Shown: positions 1-13,063, numbered from the stretch's first letter. The stretch is DNA of 61,678 nucleotides from an uncultured Bacilli bacterium (GCA_944359065.1 CALVSP010000002.1:1-61678); one strand, 5' to 3'. Translations and numbers: made by a program. The notes: generated by a model not told the origin, from the sequence alone.

Positions 1-87
1 CTAACAAAAAAATTAACTCAATTATTGAATTAATTTTTATTGAAATTTTTGTTTCACATCATTGACAATTATACACTTTTAACTTTT

Positions 88-516
88 TTATTTATTTTTA
101 TACTGTTCAATTATTTTTTTTATTCCCCACCAAGGAAGCAAAACACATTTTTTTCTACTTGGCTGTTTTGCTATGTCCTCATAAACAATTAAATCATTTA
201 ATACATCTTTTCTAAAATTTTTTTCATTAATCATATTTTCAAAATTTTTATATATTTCAGTTGCTTCGTTTGGTGACTTATTCAATAAATTTTTAATCAT
301 TAAAGAGGTACTACTTGTACATATTGCACAAGCTTCACCATCAAATTTGATATCTGTCATTTTATTATTCTCAATTTTTGCCATTAAGTTTATTTCATCA
401 ATACAACTTTCATTACTAGTATTTGATGTAAAATAAGTATTATCATTTACCATACCTTTATTTTTAGGATTTTGATAATTTTCTAATATAATATTTCTTT
501 TTTCTTCTTGCGTCAT
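88..516 (-). CDS. sufU: SUF-type Fe-S cluster scaffold (SufU/NifU-like)
   Basis: 142 aa. Three conserved Cys contexts (ESCIDE, GEACAICTSS, RKKCVLLPW) are typical of the SufU/IscU fold. Confidence 0.8.
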   Translation of the reverse strand: MTQEEKRNIILENYQNPKNKGMVNDNTYFTSNTSNESCIDEINLMAKIENNKMTDIKFDGEACAICTSSTSLMIKNLLNKSPNEATEIYKNFENMINEKNFRKDVLNDLIVYEDIAKQPSRKKCVLLPWWGIKKIIEQYKNK

Positions 517-574
517 TATTATTCACCATTTTAATTATATATTTTTATCAAAAAAAAATCAATATAATCTATAC

Positions 575-1522
575 TTATACTATTTCAAAATCTAGTAAAT
601 CTACTTTTGATGATATAAAATCACTAATATTTCTTACATTTTTTTCTATACTAACATATTTTTTTAAATCATCAGGAAATATTGTTACTACATTATCTAG
701 TCCACTTAAAACTGCTCCTAAAAAATTAGCTCCACTTGATATTCCAACACCTAAACCTAATTTTTTTGCTAATAATGTAGACATATTAATTGCATCATCA
801 TCATCTATTAATATAATATTATCTATTAAATTTTTATCCAATAATTGAGGAATAAATTCATCCCCAATTCCTTCTATTTTATGATTTTGTTTTAAATTAA
901 TATTTTTTTTACTTATGATTGGCAATTTTTCTGGTTCTATTGCTATTATTTTAATGTTTTTATAATTTTCTTTTAATTTTTGTCCTATTCCCATTAGTGT
1001 TCCACCAGTTCCAACACCACTTACAAATGCTTCAAATTTTATATTTTTATCAACAATTTCTTGAGCTGTTGATTTATAATTTATTTCTTTGTTTAATTTA
1101 TTACTAAATTGGTTAGGACGAAAACCATTTATCTGATTTGCTAATTCGTTTGCTCTTTTTATACATTCTAAAAATCCGCCTTCTGCTTTGGAAATTAAAA
1201 ATACTTTAGCCCCATACATTTCCATAATTTTTTTTCTTTCTTGACTTACCCAATCAGGCATAAATATATATACTGGGTTATCAAAATAAGCTCCTATTGC
1301 TGCTATCGATATACCAGTATTCCCACTTGTTGCTTCAATTATAGGTTGATGTTTTGTTATTAAATTACTTTTATATGCTTCTGTTATTATATAATATGCC
1401 ATTCTATCTTTTATACTGCCAGTTAAATTATAATATTCTAATTTTGTGTATACATTTTTTATTTTATTATCATATTTATATTTTATTTTAATTAATGGTG
1501 TGTTTCCTATTAATCCATTCAT
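575..1522 (-). CDS. cysK: Cysteine synthase / O-acetylserine sulfhydrylase (PLP-dependent)
   Basis: 315 aa with a PLP-lysine context GSIKDR, the SGNTGISIA loop and GVGTGGT. Confidence 0.8.
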   Translation of the reverse strand: MNGLIGNTPLIKIKYKYDNKIKNVYTKLEYYNLTGSIKDRMAYYIITEAYKSNLITKHQPIIEATSGNTGISIAAIGAYFDNPVYIFMPDWVSQERKKIMEMYGAKVFLISKAEGGFLECIKRANELANQINGFRPNQFSNKLNKEINYKSTAQEIVDKNIKFEAFVSGVGTGGTLMGIGQKLKENYKNIKIIAIEPEKLPIISKKNINLKQNHKIEGIGDEFIPQLLDKNLIDNIILIDDDDAINMSTLLAKKLGLGVGISSGANFLGAVLSGLDNVVTIFPDDLKKYVSIEKNVRNISDFISSKVDLLDFEIV

Positions 1523-1555
1523 AATTGATCACCATTATATTATATGAAAAAAAGG

Positions 1556-1816
1556 CTATTTTGCCTCTACTATTAATTTAATTGCTGTTCTTTCTTCGCC
1601 ATCAATCATTATATCTGTAAATGCCGGTATACAAATTAAGTTTTTTCCTGATGGAGCTACAAAGCCTCTTGCAATTGCTATTGCTTTAATTGCTTGATTC
1701 AAGGCTCCTGCTCCTATTGCTTGAATTTCTAAACTTCCTTTTTCTCTAAATATATTGGCGAGTGCCCCAGCTACTGAATTAGGATTTGATTTTGATCCTA
1801 CTTTTAATGTTTCCAT
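1556..1816 (-). CDS. spoVS: Stage V sporulation protein S
   Basis: 86 aa. Near-canonical SpoVS sequence: METLKVGSKSNPNSVAGALA...QAIGAGALNQAIKAIAIARGF. Confidence 0.85.
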   Translation of the reverse strand: METLKVGSKSNPNSVAGALANIFREKGSLEIQAIGAGALNQAIKAIAIARGFVAPSGKNLICIPAFTDIMIDGEERTAIKLIVEAK

Positions 1817-1953
1817 ATATCTTATTCCTTTCTACACTTTAAATATATGAGCAAATATTTATATATATTACCATGGATGACATGAAAATTTTTATAAATT
1901 TTGTCATATATTTTGTCAAATAAAAAATATCTTCTTTTTTTTATAAAAATATG

Positions 1954-1982
1954 TTGACTTTTTTTTAAAAATAATGTAACAT
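1954..1982 (+). promoter_or_regulatory. Candidate sigma-A promoter for tRNA-Gly
   Basis: TTGACT (1954-1959), 17-nt spacer, TAACAT (1977-1982), about 20 nt upstream of the tRNA 5' end. Confidence 0.4.
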
Positions 1983-2002
1983 TAATATTGCCTACTTAAT
2001 TT

Positions 2003-2076
2003 GCAGGTGTAGTTCAATGGTAGAACTTTAGCCTTCCAAGCTAATAACGTGGGTCCGATTCCCATCACCTGCTCCA
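2003..2076 (+). tRNA. tRNA-Gly (anticodon UCC), CCA encoded
   Basis: Acceptor stem GCAGGTG/CACCTGC. Anticodon stem-loop is TTAGC-CTTCCAA-GCTAA. T arm is GGGTCCGATTCCC, followed by a 3' TCCA. Confidence 0.9.
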
Positions 2077-2114
2077 TAAGATAAAATCGTCGCACCAAGC
2101 GATGTTAATGATTA

Positions 2115-2137
2115 AATCAACGCAAGTTGATTTTTTT
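2115..2137 (+). terminator. Hairpin plus T-run after tRNA-Gly
   Basis: ATCAAC-GCAA-GTTGAT followed by TTTTTTT. Confidence 0.45.
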
Positions 2138-2169
2138 GTTGCTATTGCAAAGAAAGGGTGTGATGTGGT

Positions 2170-2442
2170 ATGATTAATATTGTAAAAAAGAAAATCAATA
2201 TGAGTGATGAACTCAAAGCCAAAATTAATTGGTCTTGCAAATTTAATAAGAAGTCCTATCAAATAATTGAGGGATACTTAAGGATTGTGGAACATACCAA
2301 TCTAGCGTATGTAGAGCCACATAAAGTAATTATTGAAGATAAGTTATACCTATTCTTCAATGAACAGAAACATTTTTATATAGGGAATTTAAAGAAAAAA
2401 ATCCCATTGTCTGAATTATCAGAGTACATAGCAAGGCATTAA
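2170..2442 (+). CDS. Hypothetical protein (first island ORF)
   Basis: 90-aa ORF with no recognisable motif, followed by the hairpin AAGGTGTC-N10-GACACCTT at about 2512-2537. Confidence 0.35.
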   Translation: MINIVKKKINMSDELKAKINWSCKFNKKSYQIIEGYLRIVEHTNLAYVEPHKVIIEDKLYLFFNEQKHFYIGNLKKKIPLSELSEYIARH

Positions 2443-2502
2443 TGAATTGGTGAGTTTATATACTCCCACAATATTGGTTGTTTTTGTCGTATAAATAACT
2501 AA

Positions 2503-4407
<1,905 letters not shown>

Positions 4408-4425
4408 AAGGGATTTGATTAAATT

Positions 4426-4779
4426 ATGAATATTGATTATAAAAAAGTTGGAGATTATTTACTACCTAATTTGGTGATAGAAAATCAAAATTATGGAGAA
4501 ATAAACAAGTATGGATTACTAAGATTAAATTATATTAAGGAACACAAAAAAGGATTATATCAGGCACTTTTAATGAAAAATGAACTAACAAATCATCTTC
4601 TTTCAGTCAGTAAAGAATGTGAAGAAAGATTAAAAACTTTAATGGATAATTATATTAAAAATGATGAAAAACTATCTGAAAAAAGTAAAGAAAATAATCA
4701 AATTGAATGGGCAAAATTGATGAATAATTATAAAAATACTGCTGAAGAAATTATCTTAAAGGAGTTAATTTATGTCTGA
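4426..4779 (+). CDS. TnpV-like transposon-associated protein
   Basis: 117 aa. The GDYLLPNL...YGLLRLNYIKEHKKGLY...AEEIILKELIY pattern matches my memory of the TnpV family of Tn4451-like elements. Confidence 0.6.
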   Translation: MNIDYKKVGDYLLPNLVIENQNYGEINKYGLLRLNYIKEHKKGLYQALLMKNELTNHLLSVSKECEERLKTLMDNYIKNDEKLSEKSKENNQIEWAKLMNNYKNTAEEIILKELIYV

Positions 4780-4842
4780 TGTTGTCATAAGCAAGCAAGG
4801 TAGTATTACTCCCACCACTCCAAAAGAAAGGATAAACCTATA

Positions 4843-6150
4843 ATGGCAACAACATCAATTTGGAGTATTAAGAATAATTTAAAGCAGTCTATAAATTATA
4901 TTATCAATCCAGAAAAAACTCTTAATAAAGATTATGGTAATAGAGAGTCATATAGTTATTTAGAAGAACCTATTAAAGATTGTAATTTTAAACAAGAAAA
5001 AGTTTGTTATGTCAGTTGCTTAAATTGTGATGAAGATAATCCTTGTGATGATATGGAGTTCACTAAAGAAATATTTAGAAAGAAAGACGGAGTTCTCGCT
5101 TATCATGGTTATCAGTCATTTAAAGAAGATGAAGTTACTCCTGATATTGCTCATGAGATTGGAGTTAAGTTTGCTAAAGAAATGTTTAAAGATTATGAAG
5201 TGGTTGTCGCAACGCATCAAAATACTAATCATATTCATAACCATTTCATAATAAACTCTGTATCTTTTAAAAGTGGTAAGAAATATAATAACAATCTAAC
5301 CAATATATCAAAGATAAGACACATTTCTGATTCACTATGTTCTGAATATGGTCTTTCGGTTTTAGATGAAGATAAGTTTTATAAAAAGACTTACACCAAA
5401 AGTATATCAAACGATGAATATTACAAAACTCTTAAAGAAGATTTAGATAATGTTATTAGTTATTCAGTTACTTTAAAACAATTATTTGAAAGAATGAGAT
5501 CATTAGGTTATAAAGTATATTCTCGTAATGGTGTTATAACTATTTATAGAGATGGTGAAGATAAAGTTAGAATAGAAAATGTATTTGGTGAAGAATATTC
5601 AAAAGAAAGACTAAACCAACGATTATATTTATCAAAACAAATAGTATTTAGACCTATGCCACAAAAATCTATCTTTGAAGAATATTCTAAAACTAATAAA
5701 CCCCATAAAGGAATATATGGATTGTATCTATACTATTGTTATCTACTAGGAGTATTTCTTAAAAAGCATCCTAAGCAATATCTTCCATACTCTATTAGAA
5801 AAGAAGTTTATAAATTAGAACAAACTTCACAACAAGTTAGATTTATGCATGAGAAAAATATCGTCACAAAAGAAGATTTAGATAACTTTGTTAAAAATAA
5901 CTCTGATGAATTAAGTGAATTAAAAGGAAAAAGAGAAAATCTCTGGAAAAGATATCATAGAGCAAAAACCGAAGATAAGAAAAATGAAATACTTGCTGAA
6001 ATAAATGATATACAGCCTAAAATTAAAGAACTTTATAAATATGATAAGTATTGTAAGGAAATAATTAAAAGAGCTGAAGGAATACAAAATAATCTTAATA
6101 ATTTTGATAAAGATATCCAAAAAGAAAAAGACAATTCTAGGTCTATGTGA
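4843..6150 (+). CDS. Relaxase/mobilization nuclease (MobA/VirD2-type)
   Basis: N-terminal ...INYIINPEKT, the histidine-triad motif ATHQNTNHIHNHFIIN, and a coiled-coil C-terminus. Confidence 0.75.
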   Translation: MATTSIWSIKNNLKQSINYIINPEKTLNKDYGNRESYSYLEEPIKDCNFKQEKVCYVSCLNCDEDNPCDDMEFTKEIFRKKDGVLAYHGYQSFKEDEVTPDIAHEIGVKFAKEMFKDYEVVVATHQNTNHIHNHFIINSVSFKSGKKYNNNLTNISKIRHISDSLCSEYGLSVLDEDKFYKKTYTKSISNDEYYKTLKEDLDNVISYSVTLKQLFERMRSLGYKVYSRNGVITIYRDGEDKVRIENVFGEEYSKERLNQRLYLSKQIVFRPMPQKSIFEEYSKTNKPHKGIYGLYLYYCYLLGVFLKKHPKQYLPYSIRKEVYKLEQTSQQVRFMHEKNIVTKEDLDNFVKNNSDELSELKGKRENLWKRYHRAKTEDKKNEILAEINDIQPKIKELYKYDKYCKEIIKRAEGIQNNLNNFDKDIQKEKDNSRSM

Positions 6151-6168
6151 CTTAGATTGTCTTTTTTA

Positions 6169-6819
6169 TTATATTCTTCTACCTTTACCTTCACCAATCT
6201 CGTTATTTATAGCATAATTTGAAACTGCTCTAAAATTATCATCATATGGATAGACTTGTTGGCCAAATTGTAACCACATAGTTGACCAAGAAGTTCCTGT
6301 TTTAAGTAATTCTTGAACTCTTGCATTTTTCATAGTAGCATTACCTTCTTGATTATTTAAATCTACACAGCCTTCCTCATCATATAATTTGCTTTGTAGA
6401 TCACATTCTAATTTATCACATTGATAAGCAAACATTGCTTCTTTAGTACTATGAGAATCAAATTCTAAAAATAATTCTTTTACTTGATTACCATCTAATA
6501 AACCACCTAATATTCTATGTACTGCTTCATGTTCTAATTTTTCCTTTTCGGCTTTTGATATTTCAAATTGCGTTAAATCACCGATAACTGTTTCTCCAAG
6601 TTCATGAACTGCTAACATAAATATTACTTTCATAATATCTACATCATATTGGTATTCTGATTTCATGGCAATTGCAAGCATTTGAACTCCAAATATGTGT
6701 TCAGCTACACTTTCAATTCTTTCTCTTTGAACATTCCAGTTTTTCCAACCTGTTCTAATAACATTTTTTAATCTATTACATATAACATAGTAATTTATTA
6801 CATTTTGTTCTTTTGACAT
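6169..6819 (-). CDS. HD-domain hydrolase, YfbR/HDDC2-like (5'-deoxynucleotidase family)
   Basis: RTGW...ESVAEHIFG...AVHELGETVIGD. The signature has HE in place of HD. Confidence 0.65.
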   Translation of the reverse strand: MSKEQNVINYYVICNRLKNVIRTGWKNWNVQRERIESVAEHIFGVQMLAIAMKSEYQYDVDIMKVIFMLAVHELGETVIGDLTQFEISKAEKEKLEHEAVHRILGGLLDGNQVKELFLEFDSHSTKEAMFAYQCDKLECDLQSKLYDEEGCVDLNNQEGNATMKNARVQELLKTGTSWSTMWLQFGQQVYPYDDNFRAVSNYAINNEIGEGKGRRI

Positions 6820-6843
6820 AAAACCACCTCGTTTCGATAGAAT

Positions 6844-6872
6844 ATTATAGTGTTTTATTATACATTAGTCAA
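6844..6872 (-). promoter_or_regulatory. Consensus sigma-A promoter for the YfbR-like HD gene
   Basis: On the minus strand: TTGACT (6872-6867), exactly 17 nt, TATAAT (6849-6844). Confidence 0.6.
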
Positions 6873-6878
6873 CAAAAC

Positions 6879-7979
6879 TCAGTCATTTTCTTTTAATAAT
6901 CTTTTTGCATATCCTTTTTCATAAGGAATAAAAACAAAATCAAAATATGTATAGTAACCACCCTTTGGTATATTTAGATATGCATTTATCTCATTATTTG
7001 CTTTTTTAGAAACTTTGTTTATCCTAATTGTACCACTTTCAGTTAAAACTAGTGGAACAACATATCTTGTCTTTGCTTTTATATTTACACAATATTTTTC
7101 ATCAACGAAATCACTACTTTGATAAACAGTATCTGCTTTTTGAAATTTTCTAAAACTTTCAGATAAGTAATCGTCGTCACAATTAAAAAACTTACTAATT
7201 ATTTCACTTTCTGATAAAGTATATAAATCATCAATAGTCAAATATCCAGCGTTATTCATAGACTTACACATATCCGCCAAAAATTGCATAACAGTTCTAT
7301 CTTTATCGCTTACCCATTCAGGCCATAATCTAGAAATAGTATGAATATATTCTTCACATATTTCTTTGTCTTTAAATGCTAATTCATCTATACCATCTTC
7401 GTTTTTGGCAATTACAACATTATTATACATCTTTCTAATTTTATCTAATTCCCAAACTCTAAAAAAAGTTAAACCACTAGAAAATGTATACTCAAATCTA
7501 TCTGCGGATAATTTTGGTGTGTCATTATCAGCAATAGGATATATCTTATAATCATTTACTTCTTCTAATTTTATTCCATCTCTTTCTAGTAATGACATTA
7601 TTTCTTTTGAATTTCTAATAATATCAGTTGTTCTTTCTTCAGTAGATTCTTGTGTTTCAGAATCACCATTCATAAAATCTATACAATGTTTAAATACAGG
7701 AGTTGCAATATCGTGAAACAAACCTGCTAATGTTTGCTTTTTATCGTGAGTAAAATGCCATATAATAAGTGCAACTCCAACACTATGATCTAAATTGGAA
7801 TACCAATATCTTACGTTAAAACATTTGGAATAATCAGTTCCACAACTCATACTAATTTTACTAATTCTTTCCATTTCTGGTGTATCAATATATTCTAATA
7901 ACCATTCTGGAAATTCTGGTGATAGAATACTAAAATATTCTTTTACTTCATCATTTAATTTATCATAATATTTATTCAT
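6879..7979 (-). CDS. HD-domain phosphohydrolase (H...HD...D), third gene of the NTase operon
   Basis: 366 aa with SNLDHSVGVALI and AGLFHDIATPVFKHCIDF. Its ATG overlaps the upstream gene's stop region by 8 nt. Confidence 0.6.
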   Translation of the reverse strand: MNKYYDKLNDEVKEYFSILSPEFPEWLLEYIDTPEMERISKISMSCGTDYSKCFNVRYWYSNLDHSVGVALIIWHFTHDKKQTLAGLFHDIATPVFKHCIDFMNGDSETQESTEERTTDIIRNSKEIMSLLERDGIKLEEVNDYKIYPIADNDTPKLSADRFEYTFSSGLTFFRVWELDKIRKMYNNVVIAKNEDGIDELAFKDKEICEEYIHTISRLWPEWVSDKDRTVMQFLADMCKSMNNAGYLTIDDLYTLSESEIISKFFNCDDDYLSESFRKFQKADTVYQSSDFVDEKYCVNIKAKTRYVVPLVLTESGTIRINKVSKKANNEINAYLNIPKGGYYTYFDFVFIPYEKGYAKRLLKEND

Positions 7980-8748
7980 TATTATCCTTCTCCTGTTTCT
8001 TTTTAATTTTATTTAACAATTTTTGCCATTCTTTTGACCATTTTTCATTGTTTTTTAAAAAAATCTTACTAGATGTTAAAATCTTACAATAACTTTTTAA
8101 GCATTCATAATCCATAGTAGCATCTAAAATTAATACATTTGCATCTTTATTTTTTAAACCAATTATCAAAAATATGTTTTGAAATTCTTTACAAACTTTA
8201 TCTAATTGAAATTTATAGTAACATAATTTTATAAAAGAAAATATAATTTCGGCAGAAAATAATGTTTGCGTAATTACTAATAATAAATCCATATTTTCTA
8301 ATTTTATCATTAAAATTATATATATTATAATGAGTATACTAACTTTAATAATATTTATCGGAAGCATTTTATCAACCACTTTTTTTGTAAAAAAGGCGCT
8401 TTCATAACAATTTAGTCCGAGTTTTTCAATAGAAGGTTGTGCTTCATTATTATAATACTTATTTGTTTCTCTCAAAGTAGTGTTAACATCAAACGATTCT
8501 TTTAAAAGAGACTTTCTTCTTTCGTTTTCTGCAAGATTACTAAAATACATTTCATTTATGTTTGCCAATATAACGTATGCAATAGTTAATAATAGACTTA
8601 TAATAACAAATGTATCCCTATATTTAAAATCTAATATTAATATGAACGAAACAGCAATATTAATTAAAAATAACCAATTAGCATACTTTGCAATTTTATT
8701 ACATCTATCATAAAGTTCTTGAACTTCATCTATTCTATCATCACTCAT
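7972..8748 (-). CDS. Four-helix membrane protein (candidate SMODS-associated 4TM/SLATT-like effector)
   Basis: 258 aa. Two hydrophobic helix pairs lie at about aa 24-70 and aa 130-180. The ATG is 1 nt after the NTase stop. Confidence 0.5.
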   Translation of the reverse strand: MSDDRIDEVQELYDRCNKIAKYANWLFLINIAVSFILILDFKYRDTFVIISLLLTIAYVILANINEMYFSNLAENERRKSLLKESFDVNTTLRETNKYYNNEAQPSIEKLGLNCYESAFFTKKVVDKMLPINIIKVSILIIIYIILMIKLENMDLLLVITQTLFSAEIIFSFIKLCYYKFQLDKVCKEFQNIFLIIGLKNKDANVLILDATMDYECLKSYCKILTSSKIFLKNNEKWSKEWQKLLNKIKKKQEKDNNE

Positions 8749-8749
8749 T

Positions 8750-9538
8750 TTATACCTCTGGGAAAACCTTTGTAATTTCTCCTAATGCTGAATAAGGCAT
8801 ATTATCTTTTTCATATTTTAGTGCTTTATCTATTCTTTCTAATGCGGTATCAATTCTATTTCTTATACTACTATCACAAGTAATGTTCTTTAATTGATTA
8901 AAAGCTTCTTTTGCATAATCTGTATAACTTGTACAGTAAATGTATGAATAAGCCATATTATACGCAATTCTCTCTTCTATTTTATAAGAAGTTAAATCAT
9001 GGTAATTTATTTTTACATTCCATTCTTTAATAAGCCTTACAAGTGGTTTTATTTTATATGAATTATTGTTATTTGCTTTTGTAAGTTGTGAATTGAAGTC
9101 ATTTGGATATGTTGACATCCAACCGCCCTTGCCATCGGAAATATAGTATGTTCCAGAATATGACTTATATGCAGGAACAAGTTCAAATTTAATGTGATTT
9201 AATTCTAATACCATTGTAGGAGATGATTGATAGATTTCTGATGTAGAATACTTTGCTTCTGCAAACTTTCTTAATCTATCTAAGAAAGCTTGGGGTTTAT
9301 AATTATTAGAATTATCAAATACAACCATATAATCTACATCAAAATCATCATCAACTTTTCTAGGTAATATAGTTACTCTAGGATAAGATCCAAATTCAAA
9401 CTGCTCCTCAATATCGCTACCAAAATATGAATTTAATCGATACTCTAATGTATCTATTGATGTTTTTATACTATCCTTTTCTGAACTTGATAGTATTAAT
9501 TTTCCCGCTAAATTTTCTAAATATGAATTTACTGACAT
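8750..9538 (-). CDS. SMODS/CD-NTase-like nucleotidyltransferase
   Basis: 262 aa with a Pol-beta NTase signature: FGSYPR (GS), DFDVDYMV (DxD), FELVPAY and LVRLIKEW. Confidence 0.6.
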   Translation of the reverse strand: MSVNSYLENLAGKLILSSSEKDSIKTSIDTLEYRLNSYFGSDIEEQFEFGSYPRVTILPRKVDDDFDVDYMVVFDNSNNYKPQAFLDRLRKFAEAKYSTSEIYQSSPTMVLELNHIKFELVPAYKSYSGTYYISDGKGGWMSTYPNDFNSQLTKANNNNSYKIKPLVRLIKEWNVKINYHDLTSYKIEERIAYNMAYSYIYCTSYTDYAKEAFNQLKNITCDSSIRNRIDTALERIDKALKYEKDNMPYSALGEITKVFPEV

Positions 9539-9559
9539 ATTATCCCTCCAAAGAAAAAA

Positions 9560-9578
9560 GTATCATAATTAATGATAC
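9560..9578. promoter_or_regulatory. Perfect 7-bp inverted repeat (operator-like) upstream of the NTase gene
   Basis: GTATCAT-AATTA-ATGATAC, located 22-40 nt upstream of the NTase ATG. Confidence 0.3.
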
Positions 9579-9648
9579 AAATCTATAATAATAATATCAT
9601 ATTTTGACATTTTTTTAAATACTAACAAATGATTTTTCCTTAAAAGTA

Positions 9649-9676
9649 TTGTAATATTTTTTAAAACTGTTATAAT
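9649..9676 (+). promoter_or_regulatory. Candidate plus-strand promoter with no downstream ORF
   Basis: TTGTAA (9649-9654), 16 nt, TATAAT (9671-9676). Confidence 0.3.
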
Positions 9677-9762
9677 TTATTTAGTTGATTTAATCAAACA
9701 ACTTTGGGAGTATAATTTTTCGAATATAAGTAAAGCTATCGCTCCATATTTTGTTAATTTAA

Positions 9763-9790
9763 ACTTGTGTTTATAATCACAAGTTTTTTT
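9763..9790 (+). terminator. Rho-independent terminator (plus strand)
   Basis: ACTTGTG, 8-nt loop, CACAAGT, followed by TTTTTTT. Confidence 0.55.
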
Positions 9791-9830
9791 GTCCCACGTT
9801 ATTAGCTAAGGGAAGGCAAAGTCTACCATT
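9791..9830 (-). pseudogene. Degenerate internal fragment of tRNA-Gly (D loop to start of T stem), inverted relative to the intact gene
   Basis: The reverse complement is AATGGTAGACTTTGCCTTCCCTTAGCTAATAACGTGGGAC. tRNA positions 2016-2055 read AATGGTAGAACTTTAGCCTTCCAAGCTAATAACGTGGGTC. Confidence 0.6.
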
Positions 9831-9833
9831 TTT

Positions 9834-10586
9834 TTATTTGCACAATGACTTCATTAAAACATTATTCTTATACTCAATAATATCATCAAAAAAATTATAC
9901 CATTTTATCTGAACACAAAATCTATTTTTTTCATATTTTGGATTATAATTTAAGCATCTAGTCATTGGTTGACAAGATAAAGGCCCAAAATGGACACCAG
10001 TTGAATAATAATCTATTTTACTATTAATAATATTTTTTATTTCATTTTTTGTTATAAAAACAAAATCATCATAAAAGCCATAAATTATCATATCTATTTG
10101 ATGAATATCATTGTTTCCTTTTAAAATGAATCTTTCAATTATTTTTTCAATAATTTTTTTATTATTTAATCTTGCATTTAACAAATCTATTTTCTTTTGA
10201 TTTGTTTTTTTATATTCGCTTACAGATATTCTATTTTTTCCACTTCCATTAGTTGTGCCATCAGCATAATGATATTTCAAATAACTAAATATGTACTCTT
10301 TTTCTATACCATTTTCAATTAAGAAATGAATAAATTCCGAAATTGGTTCGACATGAAATGAATTTTTTATTCCTGATTTAATGCTTATTCTTTTTGTTTC
10401 ATTTCCTATTTTTATAAAAACATCTGTTTTTTGTAAAAAAGGATTTTTCCAAGATTTTATTCTATCTTCAGAACTTATATTTTTAAACAAAGTTTCAATC
10501 ATTTCTAAATATAAAATATTTAAGTCTTTAACCTTTCTTCCATTTAAATAATTTACTATATATATTTCGTTTATATAACCTTTCAT
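9834..10586 (-). CDS. Hypothetical protein with a PD-(D/E)XK restriction-endonuclease-like signature; no adjacent methyltransferase
   Basis: 250 aa. TDVFIKIG-x6-ISIKSG (D...SxK) is followed by a C-terminal GPLSCQPMTR...FCVQIKW. This resembles small type II REases only from memory. Confidence 0.35.
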   Translation of the reverse strand: MKGYINEIYIVNYLNGRKVKDLNILYLEMIETLFKNISSEDRIKSWKNPFLQKTDVFIKIGNETKRISIKSGIKNSFHVEPISEFIHFLIENGIEKEYIFSYLKYHYADGTTNGSGKNRISVSEYKKTNQKKIDLLNARLNNKKIIEKIIERFILKGNNDIHQIDMIIYGFYDDFVFITKNEIKNIINSKIDYYSTGVHFGPLSCQPMTRCLNYNPKYEKNRFCVQIKWYNFFDDIIEYKNNVLMKSLCK

Positions 10587-10593
10587 ATATTAC

Positions 10594-10634
10594 CTCCTAT
10601 TAGTTATATTAGCCAAAACTATAGCAAATTCCTA
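10594..10634. repeat. Copy A of a 41-bp repeat shared with 19876-19916
   Basis: 25/25 identical core CTCCTATTAGTTATATTAGCCAAAA, then CAAATTCCT conserved. Confidence 0.8.
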
Positions 10635-10682
10635 CATAAATGTTAAAAAAAAATAAACTTTTTTTATTTTTTTGTTTATTTT

Positions 10683-11378
10683 TTATAATTTTAATAATAA
10701 TTCATCATATTGATTACCTAATTTTTCAGTAGAAAACACTATATATTCGCCGTCGATAGTCCATTCATTTTTATTTTCTATTAAAAAATCAATTATTTCA
10801 TCATACACATTTAGCATATCAATAATACTATCAATACTATCTTCCATTTCTTGTTTGTTTTTATTTATCTCCGCTTCACTTGAAAATGAAAGACTTTTGT
10901 AAAAATCTATATAATATGAATCTAAATTTTTGTTTTCAACATATGACAACACTGTTTCATTATTCATTTGATTCAATATTTTTGTTTTATTATTTTCTAA
11001 TTTTTCTTTCGTATTTTTTATATATAATTTTGAATTAATAAAATTAGGTCCATCATTTTTATAGTTTTCTGCTGTTAAAATATTGACTAATTTTTCGTCA
11101 TTTAATATGTTAACAATAGTTAAAGTTATATCGATAGTATCTTTTAAATATTTTTTAGCCGCTTTTTCAACAACTAAATAATCGCCACTGCTTATTGTTT
11201 TACCTAATCTTTCATTTACGGCATCATAATCGAAATCTTCAAAATTTATCATACTATCAATTTCATTTAACTCTTGTCTTAATTTTTCTTCTTGATTATA
11301 ATCTTTAACTATTAAAACTGCTATTACGGCAATGAATAAGGCTAAAATAACGCCTATTATAATTAATACTTTTTTCAT
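10683..11378 (-). CDS. N-terminally anchored hypothetical protein (paralog of 15394..16098)
   Basis: 231 aa with a single N-terminal TM. Shared blocks with the paralog include NILND, ENYKNDGP/ENFKNDGP and YKSLSF/YKSFDF. Confidence 0.6.
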   Translation of the reverse strand: MKKVLIIIGVILALFIAVIAVLIVKDYNQEEKLRQELNEIDSMINFEDFDYDAVNERLGKTISSGDYLVVEKAAKKYLKDTIDITLTIVNILNDEKLVNILTAENYKNDGPNFINSKLYIKNTKEKLENNKTKILNQMNNETVLSYVENKNLDSYYIDFYKSLSFSSEAEINKNKQEMEDSIDSIIDMLNVYDEIIDFLIENKNEWTIDGEYIVFSTEKLGNQYDELLLKL

Positions 11379-11388
11379 ATAATCTCCT

Positions 11389-12240
11389 TTAATCTATATC
11401 AATTAATTGATATTCTTTACTACCAATTCCTAATTCTTGAGCGTGATCTAATATAACTTTTCCTTGTCTTGATTCGACTCTTTCGATAAAATGATTTTTT
11501 CCTTCATCATCAGAATTATAAATTAAATCTAAACACGCTTGGTCTAATGCTACAGGATCTAATGATGCAAGGATTCCAATATCTTTCATACAAGGTGCTT
11601 CAGGATTTGCCACACAATCACAATCAACTGATAAATTATTAATGACATTAATATAAACGATATTTTTAAAATAATCTACTACGGATTTATCTGCTTCGGC
11701 CATTGATTCGATAAATTCAACTTGGGGTGTTGACCAAATATCATCACGTTTTACACCACCACTATGTATCCACGCCTTACCTCGTGAAGATGCTAGTCCG
11801 ATTGACATATTTTTTAATGCGCCACCAAATCCTCCCATTGGATGTCCTTTAAAATGTGATAACATCAACATTGAATCATAGTTATCAATATTTTTACCGA
11901 CATAATTTTCTTTTAAATGTCTACCACCATTAACAGGTAAAGTGATATCACCATCTCTATCCATTAAATCAACATTTGAAAATCCGTGTTCTTTGATAGT
12001 TTCTAAATGATCTTTAGTGGTATTTCTTTTTCCTTCATAGGCTGTATTACATTCAACGATCGTTCCATTTAATTTTTTTACTAAATTATTAATTAATTCT
12101 GGTTTTAAATAATGATTATTACCGGCTTCGCCAGTTGAGATTTTAACGGCAACTTTACCACTTAATTTTCTTTCTAATTTTTCATAAATTTTAATTAAAC
12201 TTTCACTACTTATTTCTTTTGTAAAATAAACTTTTTCCAT
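11389..12240 (-). CDS. DUF362-like protein
   Basis: 283 aa. The overall pattern, with a CDC Cys cluster (SVDCDCV), resembles the DUF362 family as I remember it. Confidence 0.5.
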   Translation of the reverse strand: MEKVYFTKEISSESLIKIYEKLERKLSGKVAVKISTGEAGNNHYLKPELINNLVKKLNGTIVECNTAYEGKRNTTKDHLETIKEHGFSNVDLMDRDGDITLPVNGGRHLKENYVGKNIDNYDSMLMLSHFKGHPMGGFGGALKNMSIGLASSRGKAWIHSGGVKRDDIWSTPQVEFIESMAEADKSVVDYFKNIVYINVINNLSVDCDCVANPEAPCMKDIGILASLDPVALDQACLDLIYNSDDEGKNHFIERVESRQGKVILDHAQELGIGSKEYQLIDID

Positions 12241-13063
12241 ATTTTTTCCTTTCTATTTCAATAGTTGAATGATTAATATTGTTTTCTTTTAAATAGTCTT
12301 TTATTATATTTTCCATCTTTTCTACTTCATCATTTTTAATTATTACATGTAAGGTTGCATAATTATCATACCCATCCATACTCCAAATATGAATATGATT
12401 TATATTTGCAATATTTTTATTTTTTAATAGTTCTTTTTTAATTTTTCTTATGTTAATATTACTTGGTGTTTTTTCTAAAAATAAATCTAATACGATTTTT
12501 AGATGTTTTAATGCGTGAATGATAATGTAAACTGATATAATAAAACTCATTATTGAATCTATATAATCAATTTTTGTAAATTTAATTAATATCGACCCGA
12601 TTAAAACTATTATCCAATTTAAAACATCCTGAAGTAAATGTAAGTTAACCGCTTCTTGGTTTAAAGAGTGTCCTCCCTTTGTTTTATACACTGCAATTAT
12701 GTTAAACAATATACCAATTAATGCTATTATAATCATACCATTATAATTGAGTCCTACGGGATTAAAAAGTCTATTTATTGCATTATAAATTACCATAAAT
12801 GAGCCACCTAGTAGAATTACTGTTGTTATAAAAGCGGCTAATATCGAATATCTAACATAACCATAAGTGTATTTATAGTTTGGTCTATGTTTACTCTTTT
12901 TTTCTAAAAAATAAGAAATTCCAATACTTGATGCATCAGCAATATCGTGAACTGAACCTGATAATATTGAAACACTATTTGTTATAACACCACCGATTAG
13001 TTCTAATATTGCAAAAGCGATATTTAAAATAAAAGCTATTAAAATGTTTTTATCTGTTTTCAT
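12206..13063 (-). CDS. Cation diffusion facilitator family transporter
   Basis: 285 aa with six TM segments, the SVHDIADA motif in TM2 and a C-terminal cytoplasmic domain. Confidence 0.8.
   Translation of the reverse strand: MKTDKNILIAFILNIAFAILELIGGVITNSVSILSGSVHDIADASSIGISYFLEKKSKHRPNYKYTYGYVRYSILAAFITTVILLGGSFMVIYNAINRLFNPVGLNYNGMIIIALIGILFNIIAVYKTKGGHSLNQEAVNLHLLQDVLNWIIVLIGSILIKFTKIDYIDSIMSFIISVYIIIHALKHLKIVLDLFLEKTPSNINIRKIKKELLKNKNIANINHIHIWSMDGYDNYATLHVIIKNDEVEKMENIIKDYLKENNINHSTIEIERKKYGKSLFYKRNK

Follow-up and report, generated by a model that had tools for sequence, protein, structure and literature searches.

A two-gene type I CBASS in the exchangeable cargo slot of a Tn4451-like element, beside a SAMHD1-like HD gene that is probably separate from it

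Background

Does an HD-domain gene that overlaps the end of a CBASS operon belong to its signalling circuit? The question is raised by a window of 61,678 nucleotides of DNA from an uncultured Bacilli bacterium (GCA_944359065.1, CALVSP010000002.1:1-61678), in which the genes of a nucleotidyltransferase (NTase), a four-helix membrane protein (4TM) and a 366-residue HD protein, here called HD366, follow one another almost without interval. A preliminary description of this DNA proposed the HD protein as an integral third component of the system, acting either as a built-in off-switch which degrades the signal or as a second effector directed at nucleotides or nucleic acids. HD-superfamily enzymes include hydrolases of nucleotide signals, a point in favour of such a role.

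Type I CBASS is defined as one cyclase accompanied by one Cap gene (PMC10419184), and two-gene CD-NTase-4TM operons have been found by experiment to suffice for defence (10.1101/2023.05.21.541620). The comparison of the locus with its relatives indicates that the window probably holds a type I CBASS of this two-gene kind, placed in the cargo slot of a Tn4451-like mobilizable element, and that HD366 is a separate gene outside the CBASS circuit.

Results

Gene layout and junctions

The ORF listing bore out the three minus-strand genes with the coordinates and lengths previously reported, namely the CD-NTase/SMODS cyclase at 8750..9538 (262 aa), the 4TM effector at 7972..8748 (258 aa) and HD366 at 6879..7979 (366 aa). 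The cyclase TAA is followed by a single base and then by the 4TM ATG, while the 4TM gene closes with a TAA whose end, at 7972, falls 8 nt within the HD366 gene, of which the ATG lies at 7979; both junctions thus agree with the 1-nt gap and the 8-nt overlap described. The motifs EFGSYPR, DDDFDVDYMV, FELVPAY and LVRLIKEW were all found in ORF 8750-9538, LDHSVGVA and LFHDIATPVFKH in the product of 6879-7979, and hydropathy analysis resolved the two hydrophobic pairs of the 258-aa protein into four transmembrane helices (residues 23-41, 46-64, 130-148 and 155-173). All three are genuine genes rather than chance ORFs, as indicated by a Pfam SMODS match of 1.2e-43 and a PADLOC match of 4.8e-92 for the cyclase, a PADLOC match of 1.9e-55 for the 4TM protein, and 6361 database relatives of HD366.

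A fourth gene on the same strand follows HD366 and corrects the earlier three-gene picture. It encodes an HD_3/YfbR-like 5'-deoxynucleotidase-like protein (6169..6819, 216 aa; Pfam HD_3 8.1e-28, YfbR-like 1.4e-06), hereafter HD_3. The 59-nt gap ahead of it contains a strong minus-strand sigma-70-like promoter match (6844..6872; TTGACT-17-TATAAT, 11/12 in the promoter scan), which is a consensus match only. A hairpin with a T-tract at 6136..6156, called on the plus strand by the terminator scan, separates the cargo genes from a convergent relaxase gene; sister elements keep its relaxase-side half, and a comparison of the window with loci L086 and L003 places the downstream boundary of the variable cargo there.

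On the other side of the operon, an end-proximal leader (9539..9746, minus strand) is conserved across sister elements as a putative promoter region. With 93-94% identity it recurs ahead of the cyclase gene in L086 and, in L003 and L151, ahead of Abi_alpha, and the promoter scan gave weak consensus matches only within it. The Rfam scan of 1800-10800 returned nothing except a tRNA, leaving the leader without an Rfam family, and the operon leader therefore contains no riboswitch. The leader belongs to the element and would drive whichever cassette comes first, and the genes behind it would be co-transcribed.

A canonical pair of cyclase and membrane effector

By gene content, the cyclase and the 4TM protein make up a type I CBASS of the canonical two-gene form. 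The assignment of the NTase to the SMODS/CD-NTase group is upheld by both profile searches, Pfam SMODS and PADLOC Cyclase (PDLC00769, full length). Against NCBIfam CBASS_cyclase_b the protein scored 100.6 bits, below the equivalog cut-off of 200 bits. Its PDB matches are weak (E about 1e-3) and fall on CD-NTases including CdnD. The active site is intact, with GS and the [D/E]x[D/E]...[D/E] pattern present, and G50, S51, D67, D69 and E119 are invariant in an alignment of 52 clade sequences. Residues 4-248 of the 4TM protein cover positions 2-254 of the 256 in the PADLOC 4TM effector profile PDLC00719; with both proteins matched over their full length, the earlier view of the pair as a minimal CBASS stands. 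Moreover, a 4TM gene directly follows the cyclase in 29 other loci, and neither Cap2/Cap3 nor HORMA/TRIP13 nor type IV genes were detected by PADLOC and Pfam among the neighbouring ORFs.

If the pair works like its characterised type I CBASS homologues, the CD-NTase would be activated by phage infection through its GS...DxD...E active site, the enzyme would synthesise a cyclic oligonucleotide, and this signal would render the 4TM effector active, leading to membrane damage and aborted infection. The system resembles type I CBASS with a 4TM (S-4TM) effector, such as EcCdnD12-4TM, in the adjacency of a SMODS/CD-NTase gene and a gene for a four-helix membrane effector of ~250 aa, in the GS...DxD...acidic active site of the cyclase, and in the lack of Cap2/Cap3 or HORMA/TRIP13 genes. 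It differs in its short cyclase (262 aa), which resembles solved CD-NTases only distantly and belongs to a clade with Glu throughout as the third acidic residue, and in being carried by a Tn4451-like element in an uncultured low-GC gut Bacilli lineage. A further difference is the substitution S66F, which is private to the window cyclase: the position is Ser in 51/51 aligned clade members and in 5 other near-identical copies that were checked. This copy of the CBASS may therefore be impaired.

The mobilizable element and its exchangeable cargo

As the preliminary description held, a mobilizable element inserted at a tRNA gene carries the operon; this is borne out by the backbone genes and by precise ends at tRNA-Gly. 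The 7.7-kb element (2071..9746) has the direct repeat GCTCCA(T) at its two ends, starting at positions 2071 and 9741. Its left end supplies the last 6 nt (GCTCCA, 2071-2076) of the plus-strand tRNA-Gly(TCC) gene at 2003..2076, which was identified by ARAGORN, Rfam (tRNA, 70.8 bits) and junction alignment. The backbone, all on the plus strand, comprises a large serine recombinase (2527..4407; Pfam Resolvase 1.9e-33, Recombinase 5.7e-21), TnpV (4426..4779; Pfam TnpV 1.1e-31) and a MobA/VirD2-type relaxase (4843..6150; Pfam Relaxase 1.2e-36), the last being convergent with the cargo operon. Locus L153 matches 2071..9746 at 99%, the sequences to either side of the match being unrelated, similarity to the window ends at about 9747 in L001, L003, L086 and L151, and L046 represents the empty site, where tRNA-Gly adjoins a REase-like gene. 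This REase-like gene (9834-10586 in the window) had been named as part of a defence-island context; it lies beyond the end of the element, in the chromosomal flank, and is not island cargo.

We take the element to belong to the Tn4451 family on the basis of its gene content. Like Tn4451/Tn4453-family mobilizable transposons, it combines a large serine recombinase, TnpV and a Mob relaxase within about 7-8 kb, has precise ends and occurs as the same element at different sites. It differs in carrying defence cassettes and HD366/HD_3 instead of catP, and in sitting at the 3' end of tRNA-Gly with the GCTCCA(T) repeat.

Between the shared leader and the shared terminator, sister elements carry CBASS with a FAD-oxidoreductase and a methyltransferase, Abi_alpha with HD, a 417-aa protein with HD, or an ATPase and a reverse transcriptase with HD. 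The cassettes found in the cargo slot are CBASS, Abi_alpha, the 417-aa protein, PDC-S54, and the ATPase plus reverse transcriptase, which gives at least five first-slot modules and two second-slot alternatives across uncultured gut Bacilli. Variable cargo slots between conserved flanks are known from defence hotspots in other mobile elements. Here, recombination at conserved flanks would swap the cassettes; these flanks are the end-proximal leader and, opposite it, either the 5' end of HD366 or the terminator. Together with the YfbR-like HD_3, HD366 forms a conserved module of its own where the slot has its inner edge.

Fold and family of HD366

HD366 was modelled with AF2 (pLDDT 81.8, pTM 0.83), and the model was compared with known structures by Foldseek. 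The best matches were 2hek (2.5e-7, TMq 0.64), EF1143 (3irh, 3.2e-7), SAMHD1 (8tdv, 7.2e-6) and BT4208 (2q14, 2.9e-5); against SAMHD1, EF1143 and 2hek the alignments are full-length, with E from 2.5e-7 to 7e-5, TMq 0.55-0.65 and probability 1.0. PDE4 matches had E>0.5, and the Dgt-type SpdGTPase 9p8w matched only with E 0.045 and TMq 0.21. The tetrad H65, H89, D90 and D160, together with H98 and D101, is invariant among 38 family members. The model thus predicts HD366 to be a SAMHD1/EF1143-like metal-dependent phosphohydrolase, with (deoxy)nucleotides as its probable substrate.

The likeness to the COG1078-like dNTP triphosphohydrolases SAMHD1, EF1143 and A. aeolicus O67745 (2hek) lies in the full-length fold and in the H65/H89-D90/D160 metal tetrad. 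The HD366 register HDxxxxxxxH98xxD101 also resembles HDIGHGPFSHMFD of SAMHD1. HD366 differs in being only 12-17% identical to these proteins, in lacking a sequence-level match to any PDB chain, and in having Thr at the position equivalent to H210 of SAMHD1. Searches of PDB sequences with the single query and with a 38-sequence profile returned nothing meaningful, the best match being ATP-citrate synthase at E 1.5. Against Pfam HD the protein scores 17.5 bits, under the 22-bit gathering threshold, and no match to HD366 was obtained from NCBIfam, PADLOC or PHROGs; at E<=0.1, no PADLOC family, dGTPase models included, was found for either HD366 or HD_3. Furthermore, no cyclic-nucleotide sensor domain is recognisable in HD366, in which Pfam detects a weak HD domain only and the model aligns to dNTPases along its full length.

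The relatives of HD366 are spread across at least 316 species genomes, and some MAGs possess a second, chromosomal paralog (L002/L041 and L007/L017). In plasmid and phage collections the only matches were 'HD domain-containing protein' entries of ~25% identity in Bacillus, Priestia and Listeria; HD366 is therefore not a typical plasmid or phage cargo.

Origin of the 8-nt overlap

The preliminary description read the overlap as a sign of coupling between the 4TM and HD genes. It proves to be generic to the start context of HD366, since the same 8-nt overlap occurs at the HD366 start with four unrelated upstream genes. The final ~6 codons of the 4TM gene cross the Shine-Dalgarno and start codon belonging to HD366 itself, and the upstream ORF produces the overlap by running on through this ribosome-binding site to an out-of-frame TAA inside ATGAATAA, the start context of HD366, which contains out-of-frame stops. 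L028 likewise carries the shared leader ggagaaggataa, with no ORF upstream of it, and a 1-nt deletion abolishes the overlap in L154 and L155, whose HD protein is 99% identical to that of the window. Whether the C-terminal tail of the 4TM protein is abnormally extended was also considered and discarded as not clear-cut, homolog tails differing by 0-10 residues; the account given here draws on the shared leader.

HD366 and CBASS vary independently

Neighbouring genes in the compared loci were delimited with a crude ORF caller. CBASS precedes HD366 in 2 of the 80 relative loci examined, both being near-identical copies of the window's element, and at none of the 29 other cyclase+4TM loci is HD366 or any other HD-domain gene next; the 27 next genes there all differ from one another. 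The proposal of an obligatory HD component fails on this count, co-occurrence in other genomes being a test that the preliminary description had itself set. L086 preserves the cyclase (93%), the 4TM gene (95%), the leader and the backbone, but where the window has HD366 and HD_3 it carries genes for a FAD oxidoreductase and a methyltransferase. Conversely, L003 and L151 preserve leader, HD366 and backbone, with Abi_alpha where the window has CBASS, and relatives of HD366 at 90-96% identity sit behind Abi_alpha, the 417-aa protein, or the ATPase and reverse transcriptase. HD_3 travels with HD366 in the closest relatives, and the pair occurs without CBASS in L022, L147-L152 and L158, with no co-oriented upstream gene in L022. 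HD366 is an independent gene and not a CBASS component; as it stays constant while the upstream cassettes are swapped, it looks like a conserved anchor gene beside the defence-cargo slot.

A diverged lineage (L159-L161), with a different Mob_Pre backbone and without HD_3, retains the 4TM-HD366 junction and its 8-nt overlap; the HD and 4TM proteins are 87% and 83% identical to those of the window, the cyclase only 44%. The adjacency therefore predates a single clone. For relatives sharing >=87% identity with HD366, each of six look-ups put the gene immediately behind a cargo module, be it known, candidate or unassigned, a pattern which fails in L086 and at 85% identity (L162). The junction in L159-L161 and the cargo-adjacent position of close relatives would also fit a generic functional partnership. 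In the wider family, ~15/70 upstream and 10/71 downstream neighbours match defence or candidate models, methyltransferases and PDC candidates included; the eight Abi_alpha neighbours belong to one element lineage and are not independent observations. Most members have ordinary genes around them (MatE, NUDIX, cytidylate kinase-like, ABC transporters, LexA) and are often preceded by a promoter-like leader of their own.

Discussion

An integral HD component, whether off-switch or signal-activated second effector, appears very improbable. The gene shares its strand with the CBASS genes, overlaps the 4TM gene with no obvious promoter between them, and keeps this junction in two diverged lineages. 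Against these points, the trio does not co-occur outside this element lineage, the CBASS of L086 is intact without HD366, four other unrelated modules also precede the gene, L154 and L155 do without the overlap, and CdnD-4TM two-gene systems defend alone (10.1101/2023.05.21.541620). The protein itself has a SAMHD1/EF1143-like fold, no significant match to a cyclic-nucleotide phosphodiesterase and no recognisable sensor domain, and a role as cyclic-nucleotide phosphodiesterase or off-switch was rejected for reasons of fold and distribution. A different link between the two enzymes is offered by Clover, the nearest published precedent for the NTase-HD idea, a defence operon joining a Pol-beta NTase (CloB) and an HD dNTPase (CloA) in which the former can regulate the latter as an effector (PMC12265719). 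A signal from the window's NTase restraining or activating HD366 in the same manner is exceedingly improbable. CloA, which has a dedicated NTase, is a Dgt-type dGTPase about 33% identical to SpdGTPase (PMC12265719), whose structure 9p8w shares the overall HD fold of CloA and matches HD366 poorly. In the window, by contrast, a SAMHD1-type HD protein stands beside a full-length match to a CBASS cyclase, with the cyclase's own 4TM effector between them; NTase and HD genes neither co-vary nor co-occur elsewhere, and L159 has swapped its cyclase and kept its HD gene. A Clover-like pair was rejected.

HD366, alone or with HD_3, might instead be a defence or accessory module in its own right, depleting (deoxy)nucleotides in the manner of SAMHD1 independently of CBASS or in synergy with it, outside its signalling. 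This we regard as unlikely. In its favour are the fold, the intact H..HD..D tetrad with H98/D101, the pairing with a YfbR-like deoxynucleotidase, the position next to variable, mostly defence-type cargo, which six out of seven close-relative look-ups (85-99%) returned, the share of defence or candidate models among the family's neighbours, and the established use of dNTP depletion as a means of defence (PMC12265719, PMC13519002). On the other hand, the protein has no PADLOC match and resembles Dgt-type anti-phage dGTPases too poorly to be one of them, most of its family lies among ordinary genes, the Abi_alpha neighbours reduce to a single lineage, and second chromosomal paralogs in some MAGs fit a housekeeping dNTPase like EF1143. 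It is, if anything, slightly less likely that HD366 and HD_3 are an undescribed SAMHD1-type nucleotide-hydrolase module that stays the same while its partners, the abortive-infection cassettes, are interchanged within a family of Tn4451-like elements from gut Bacilli, where it could add a stacked dNTP-depletion defence or buffer or enhance Abi toxicity in a generic way. The reading preferred here, and the probable one, is a two-gene CBASS with HD366 as a separate neighbour.

Conclusions

The overlap and the analogy with writer/eraser pairs had suggested a new three-gene CBASS, and this false lead is now removed: in its comparative context, the locus is a standard type I CBASS beside an unrelated gene. 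As a by-product, an exchange of defence cassettes is cleanly resolved, with ends, leader, terminator and breakpoints defined to the base. The analysis also draws attention to an unannotated family of SAMHD1-like HD proteins, which is both large, with more than 6000 clusters, and highly conserved.

Gene layout and the CBASS pair

Four genes follow one another on the minus strand. The cyclase (8750-9538, 262 aa) stops one base before the ATG of the 4TM effector gene (7972-8748, 258 aa), whose TAA ends 8 nt within the gene of the 366-aa HD protein, HD366 (6879-7979). These three consecutive ORFs, their junctions and every motif quoted in the preliminary description were recovered. The fourth gene, HD_3/YfbR-like by Pfam (6169-6819), lies 59 nt beyond HD366 and is followed by a hairpin and T-tract in the terminator scan. 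In the promoter scan, the gap between the two contains an 11-of-12 match to the sigma-70 consensus (TTGACT-17-TATAAT, 6844-6872, minus strand), from which HD_3 may additionally be transcribed on its own; this gap is conserved along with the pair in L022, a locus with no co-oriented gene upstream of HD366.

The proposed SMODS-type nature of the nucleotidyltransferase was borne out by Pfam SMODS (1.2e-43) and by an end-to-end match to the PADLOC CBASS cyclase model PDLC00769 (4.8e-92), and its pairing with the 258-aa protein as a CBASS module by an equally full-length match of the latter to the PADLOC 4TM CBASS effector (1.9e-55), with four predicted transmembrane helices arranged as two pairs. 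Residues G50, S51, D67, D69 and E119 of the cyclase do not vary across 52 aligned clade members, and a related cyclase is directly followed by a 4TM gene in 29 other genomes. No Cap2/Cap3 or HORMA/TRIP13-type genes were found near the window pair, which fits the definition of type I CBASS (PMC10419184); a two-gene CdnD-4TM operon has been experimentally sufficient for defence (10.1101/2023.05.21.541620). On every point testable from sequence, the cyclase and 4TM gene are a type I CBASS with a 4TM effector.

Residue 66 of the cyclase (codon 9341-9343), directly before the catalytic D67xD69, is Phe in the window and Ser in all 51 aligned clade members, as it also is in the near-identical copies L082, L083 and L153-L155. 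Since S66F is restricted, among the copies compared, to the window and L081/L001, the window cyclase may be attenuated or inactivated.

Structure-based identity of HD366

HD366 scored 17.5 bits against Pfam HD, below the cut-off of 22 bits, and had no match in PADLOC, NCBIfam or PHROG and no PDB relative by sequence. An AlphaFold2 model built from 38 homologs (pLDDT 81.8, pTM 0.83) matched over its full length the Aquifex aeolicus HD protein 2hek, the Enterococcus faecalis dNTPase EF1143, BT4208, and human and C. elegans SAMHD1 (E 2.5e-7 to 7e-5, TMq 0.55-0.65). H65, H89, D90, D160, H98 and D101 are invariant within the family. Given these fold matches and invariant residues, HD366 is most likely a SAMHD1/EF1143-like metal-dependent (deoxy)nucleotide phosphohydrolase, grouped with such enzymes by predicted structure, as its sequence is too divergent for assignment. 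A role as cyclic-nucleotide phosphodiesterase was rejected, PDE4 giving no match to the model (E>0.5), nor did the Dgt-type anti-phage dGTPase 9p8w (E 0.045, TMq 0.21).

The mobilizable element and its insertion site

A 7.7-kb element carries the operon as cargo. Its limits come from comparison with L153, a contig which is 99% identical over 2071-9746 and diverges beyond both ends. A GCTCCA(T) direct repeat lies at the two ends, the left copy providing the final six bases of tRNA-Gly. By gene content the carrier is a Tn4451-like mobilizable element, and its host belongs to an uncultured gut Bacilli lineage of low GC, with MAGs labelled Bacilli, Erysipelotrichaceae or Tenericutes as the closest matches.

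In L046, an empty site, the REase-like gene (9834-10586 in the window; PADLOC REase_II 8.7e-11, no Pfam match) adjoins tRNA-Gly, and is therefore chromosomal flank. Of the suggested defence-island context, the mobilizable element at tRNA-Gly stands, and the REase-like neighbour drops out as cargo. Homologs of this gene (51-53% identity) occur in L003, L043 and L046, close to tRNA-Gly, to HD366 paralogs or to both. Just beyond the right end of the element, at about 9788-9828, part of tRNA-Gly (anticodon-arm region) is repeated as an inverted and degenerate copy, with a 15-nt exact match on the opposite strand (9793-9807) to tRNA positions 37-51, which is absent at the empty site. Further downstream on the chromosome, overlapping ORFs at 11389-13063 match DUF362 (4.8e-48) and the cation-efflux (CDF) transporters (2.1e-37); both genes look ordinary and unrelated to the locus.

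Cargo exchange among sister elements

The serine recombinase-TnpV-relaxase backbone, an end-proximal leader of about 210 nt (window 9539-9746) and the relaxase-side terminator are common to the sister elements at 93-95% nucleotide identity; the cargo is not. In the window, the leader-proximal slot holds cyclase-4TM and the relaxase-proximal slot HD366-HD_3; L086 combines cyclase-4TM (93-95%) with an FAD oxidoreductase and a methyltransferase, and L003 and L151 combine Abi_alpha (PDC-S47) with HD366, joined by HD_3 in L151. Further combinations, from metagenomic contigs that code for the nearest relatives of HD366, are a 417-440-aa protein with HD366 and HD_3 (HD identity 96% and 90%), an AAA_15 ATPase and reverse transcriptase (RVT_1) with HD366 and HD_3 (91%), and PDC-S54 with HD366 (81%). 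First-slot modules seen are CBASS, Abi_alpha, PDC-S54, the 417-440-aa protein and AAA_15-RVT_1, the second slot taking either HD366, with or without HD_3, or oxidoreductase-methyltransferase. As read from these sequences (L003, L004, L018, L086, L147-L152, L158), a cargo slot between the leader and HD366 or the terminator is exchangeable.

The 417-440-aa family (L004 4737-6008, L147 3755-5008, L149 1997-3319, L158 1473-2726), which overlaps HD366 by the same 8 nt, has a weak Pfam HEPN_Swt1 match (8.8e-4) and no PADLOC match, and may be an undescribed defence gene. In L004, peptide deformylase follows HD366.

The overlap itself is set by HD366. Its start, ATGAATAA, has a stop codon in each alternative reading frame (TGA and TAA), so any upstream ORF reading in must end with a 4-nt or 8-nt overlap, and four unrelated genes in the upstream position showed the identical 8-nt overlap. 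HD366 has its own ribosome-binding region in the leader ggagaaggataa, which is present also in L028, where no ORF reads into it. In L086 this leader and the first four HD366 codons (MNNY) are fused to the unrelated oxidoreductase gene, a fusion which, from its sequence, marks a recombination breakpoint. Two loci with an HD protein 99% identical to that of the window have lost 1 nt close to the 3' end of the 4TM gene, leaving a 244-aa protein ending in SKECQNC (L154 3406-4140, L155 3384-4118), a 33-nt gap and no overlap with HD366, which could be natural variation or the onset of decay.

Relation of HD366 to the CBASS pair

The HD366 family comprises 6361 clusters, with relatives in at least 316 species-level genomes. 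Among the best 80 loci, cyclase and 4TM lie beside an HD366 relative only in L001 and L002, which are 97-100% identical copies of the window element. An HMM of 79 family sequences (78 relatives and the window protein) found no relative in any other cyclase locus, and the 27 genes next after other cyclase-4TM pairs were all different, none with an HD domain. The genes directly beside HD366 in 70 loci are of many kinds (MatE, NUDIX, cytidylate kinase-like, ABC transporters, LexA and others); defence or candidate models were matched by about 15 of the 70 upstream genes and 10 of the 71 downstream ones. The three-gene CBASS with an integral HD component, as first proposed, was consequently rejected on co-occurrence, its defining test, and HD366 is an independent SAMHD1-like gene adjoining CBASS. 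The nearest published NTase-HD defence pair, Clover (CloA dGTPase and CloB NTase, PMC12265719), differs in that CloA is Dgt-type, which HD366 is not, and in that the window NTase has its own effector, 4TM.

Some MAGs encode a pair of paralogs (L002/L041 in CAMJTE01, L007/L017 in CAKOLN01). The CAMJTE01 pair consists of an element-borne copy, 98% identical to that of the window, and a second (79%) on another contig, adjoining a PDC-S01 gene, which suggests a chromosomal housekeeping copy and a mobile one.

A generic functional partnership of HD366, or an independent nucleotide-depletion defence role, would draw on its position: all relatives of at least 87% identity that were looked up lie immediately downstream of a cargo module, and in L159-L161 the HD gene (87%) directly follows 4TM (83%) with the same overlap, beside a cyclase of just 44% identity and a different backbone (Mob_Pre), and without HD_3. 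As these diverged loci retain the junction, the 4TM-HD366 adjacency is not an accident of one clone; in L159 the cyclase appears, on sequence comparison, to have been swapped and 4TM-HD retained. Either role is considered improbable, even with the two taken together. L159 (ena ERZ16268233 scaffold_395, 1-11107) carries two serine-recombinase elements in tandem at one tRNA-Gly, the first with a relaxase/TnpV/recombinase backbone 91% identical to that of the window, the second with Mob_Pre, a 617-aa recombinase and the cyclase-4TM-HD cargo. The arrangement is read as a cargo hotspot, with HD366, alone or together with HD_3, as its conserved inner flank.
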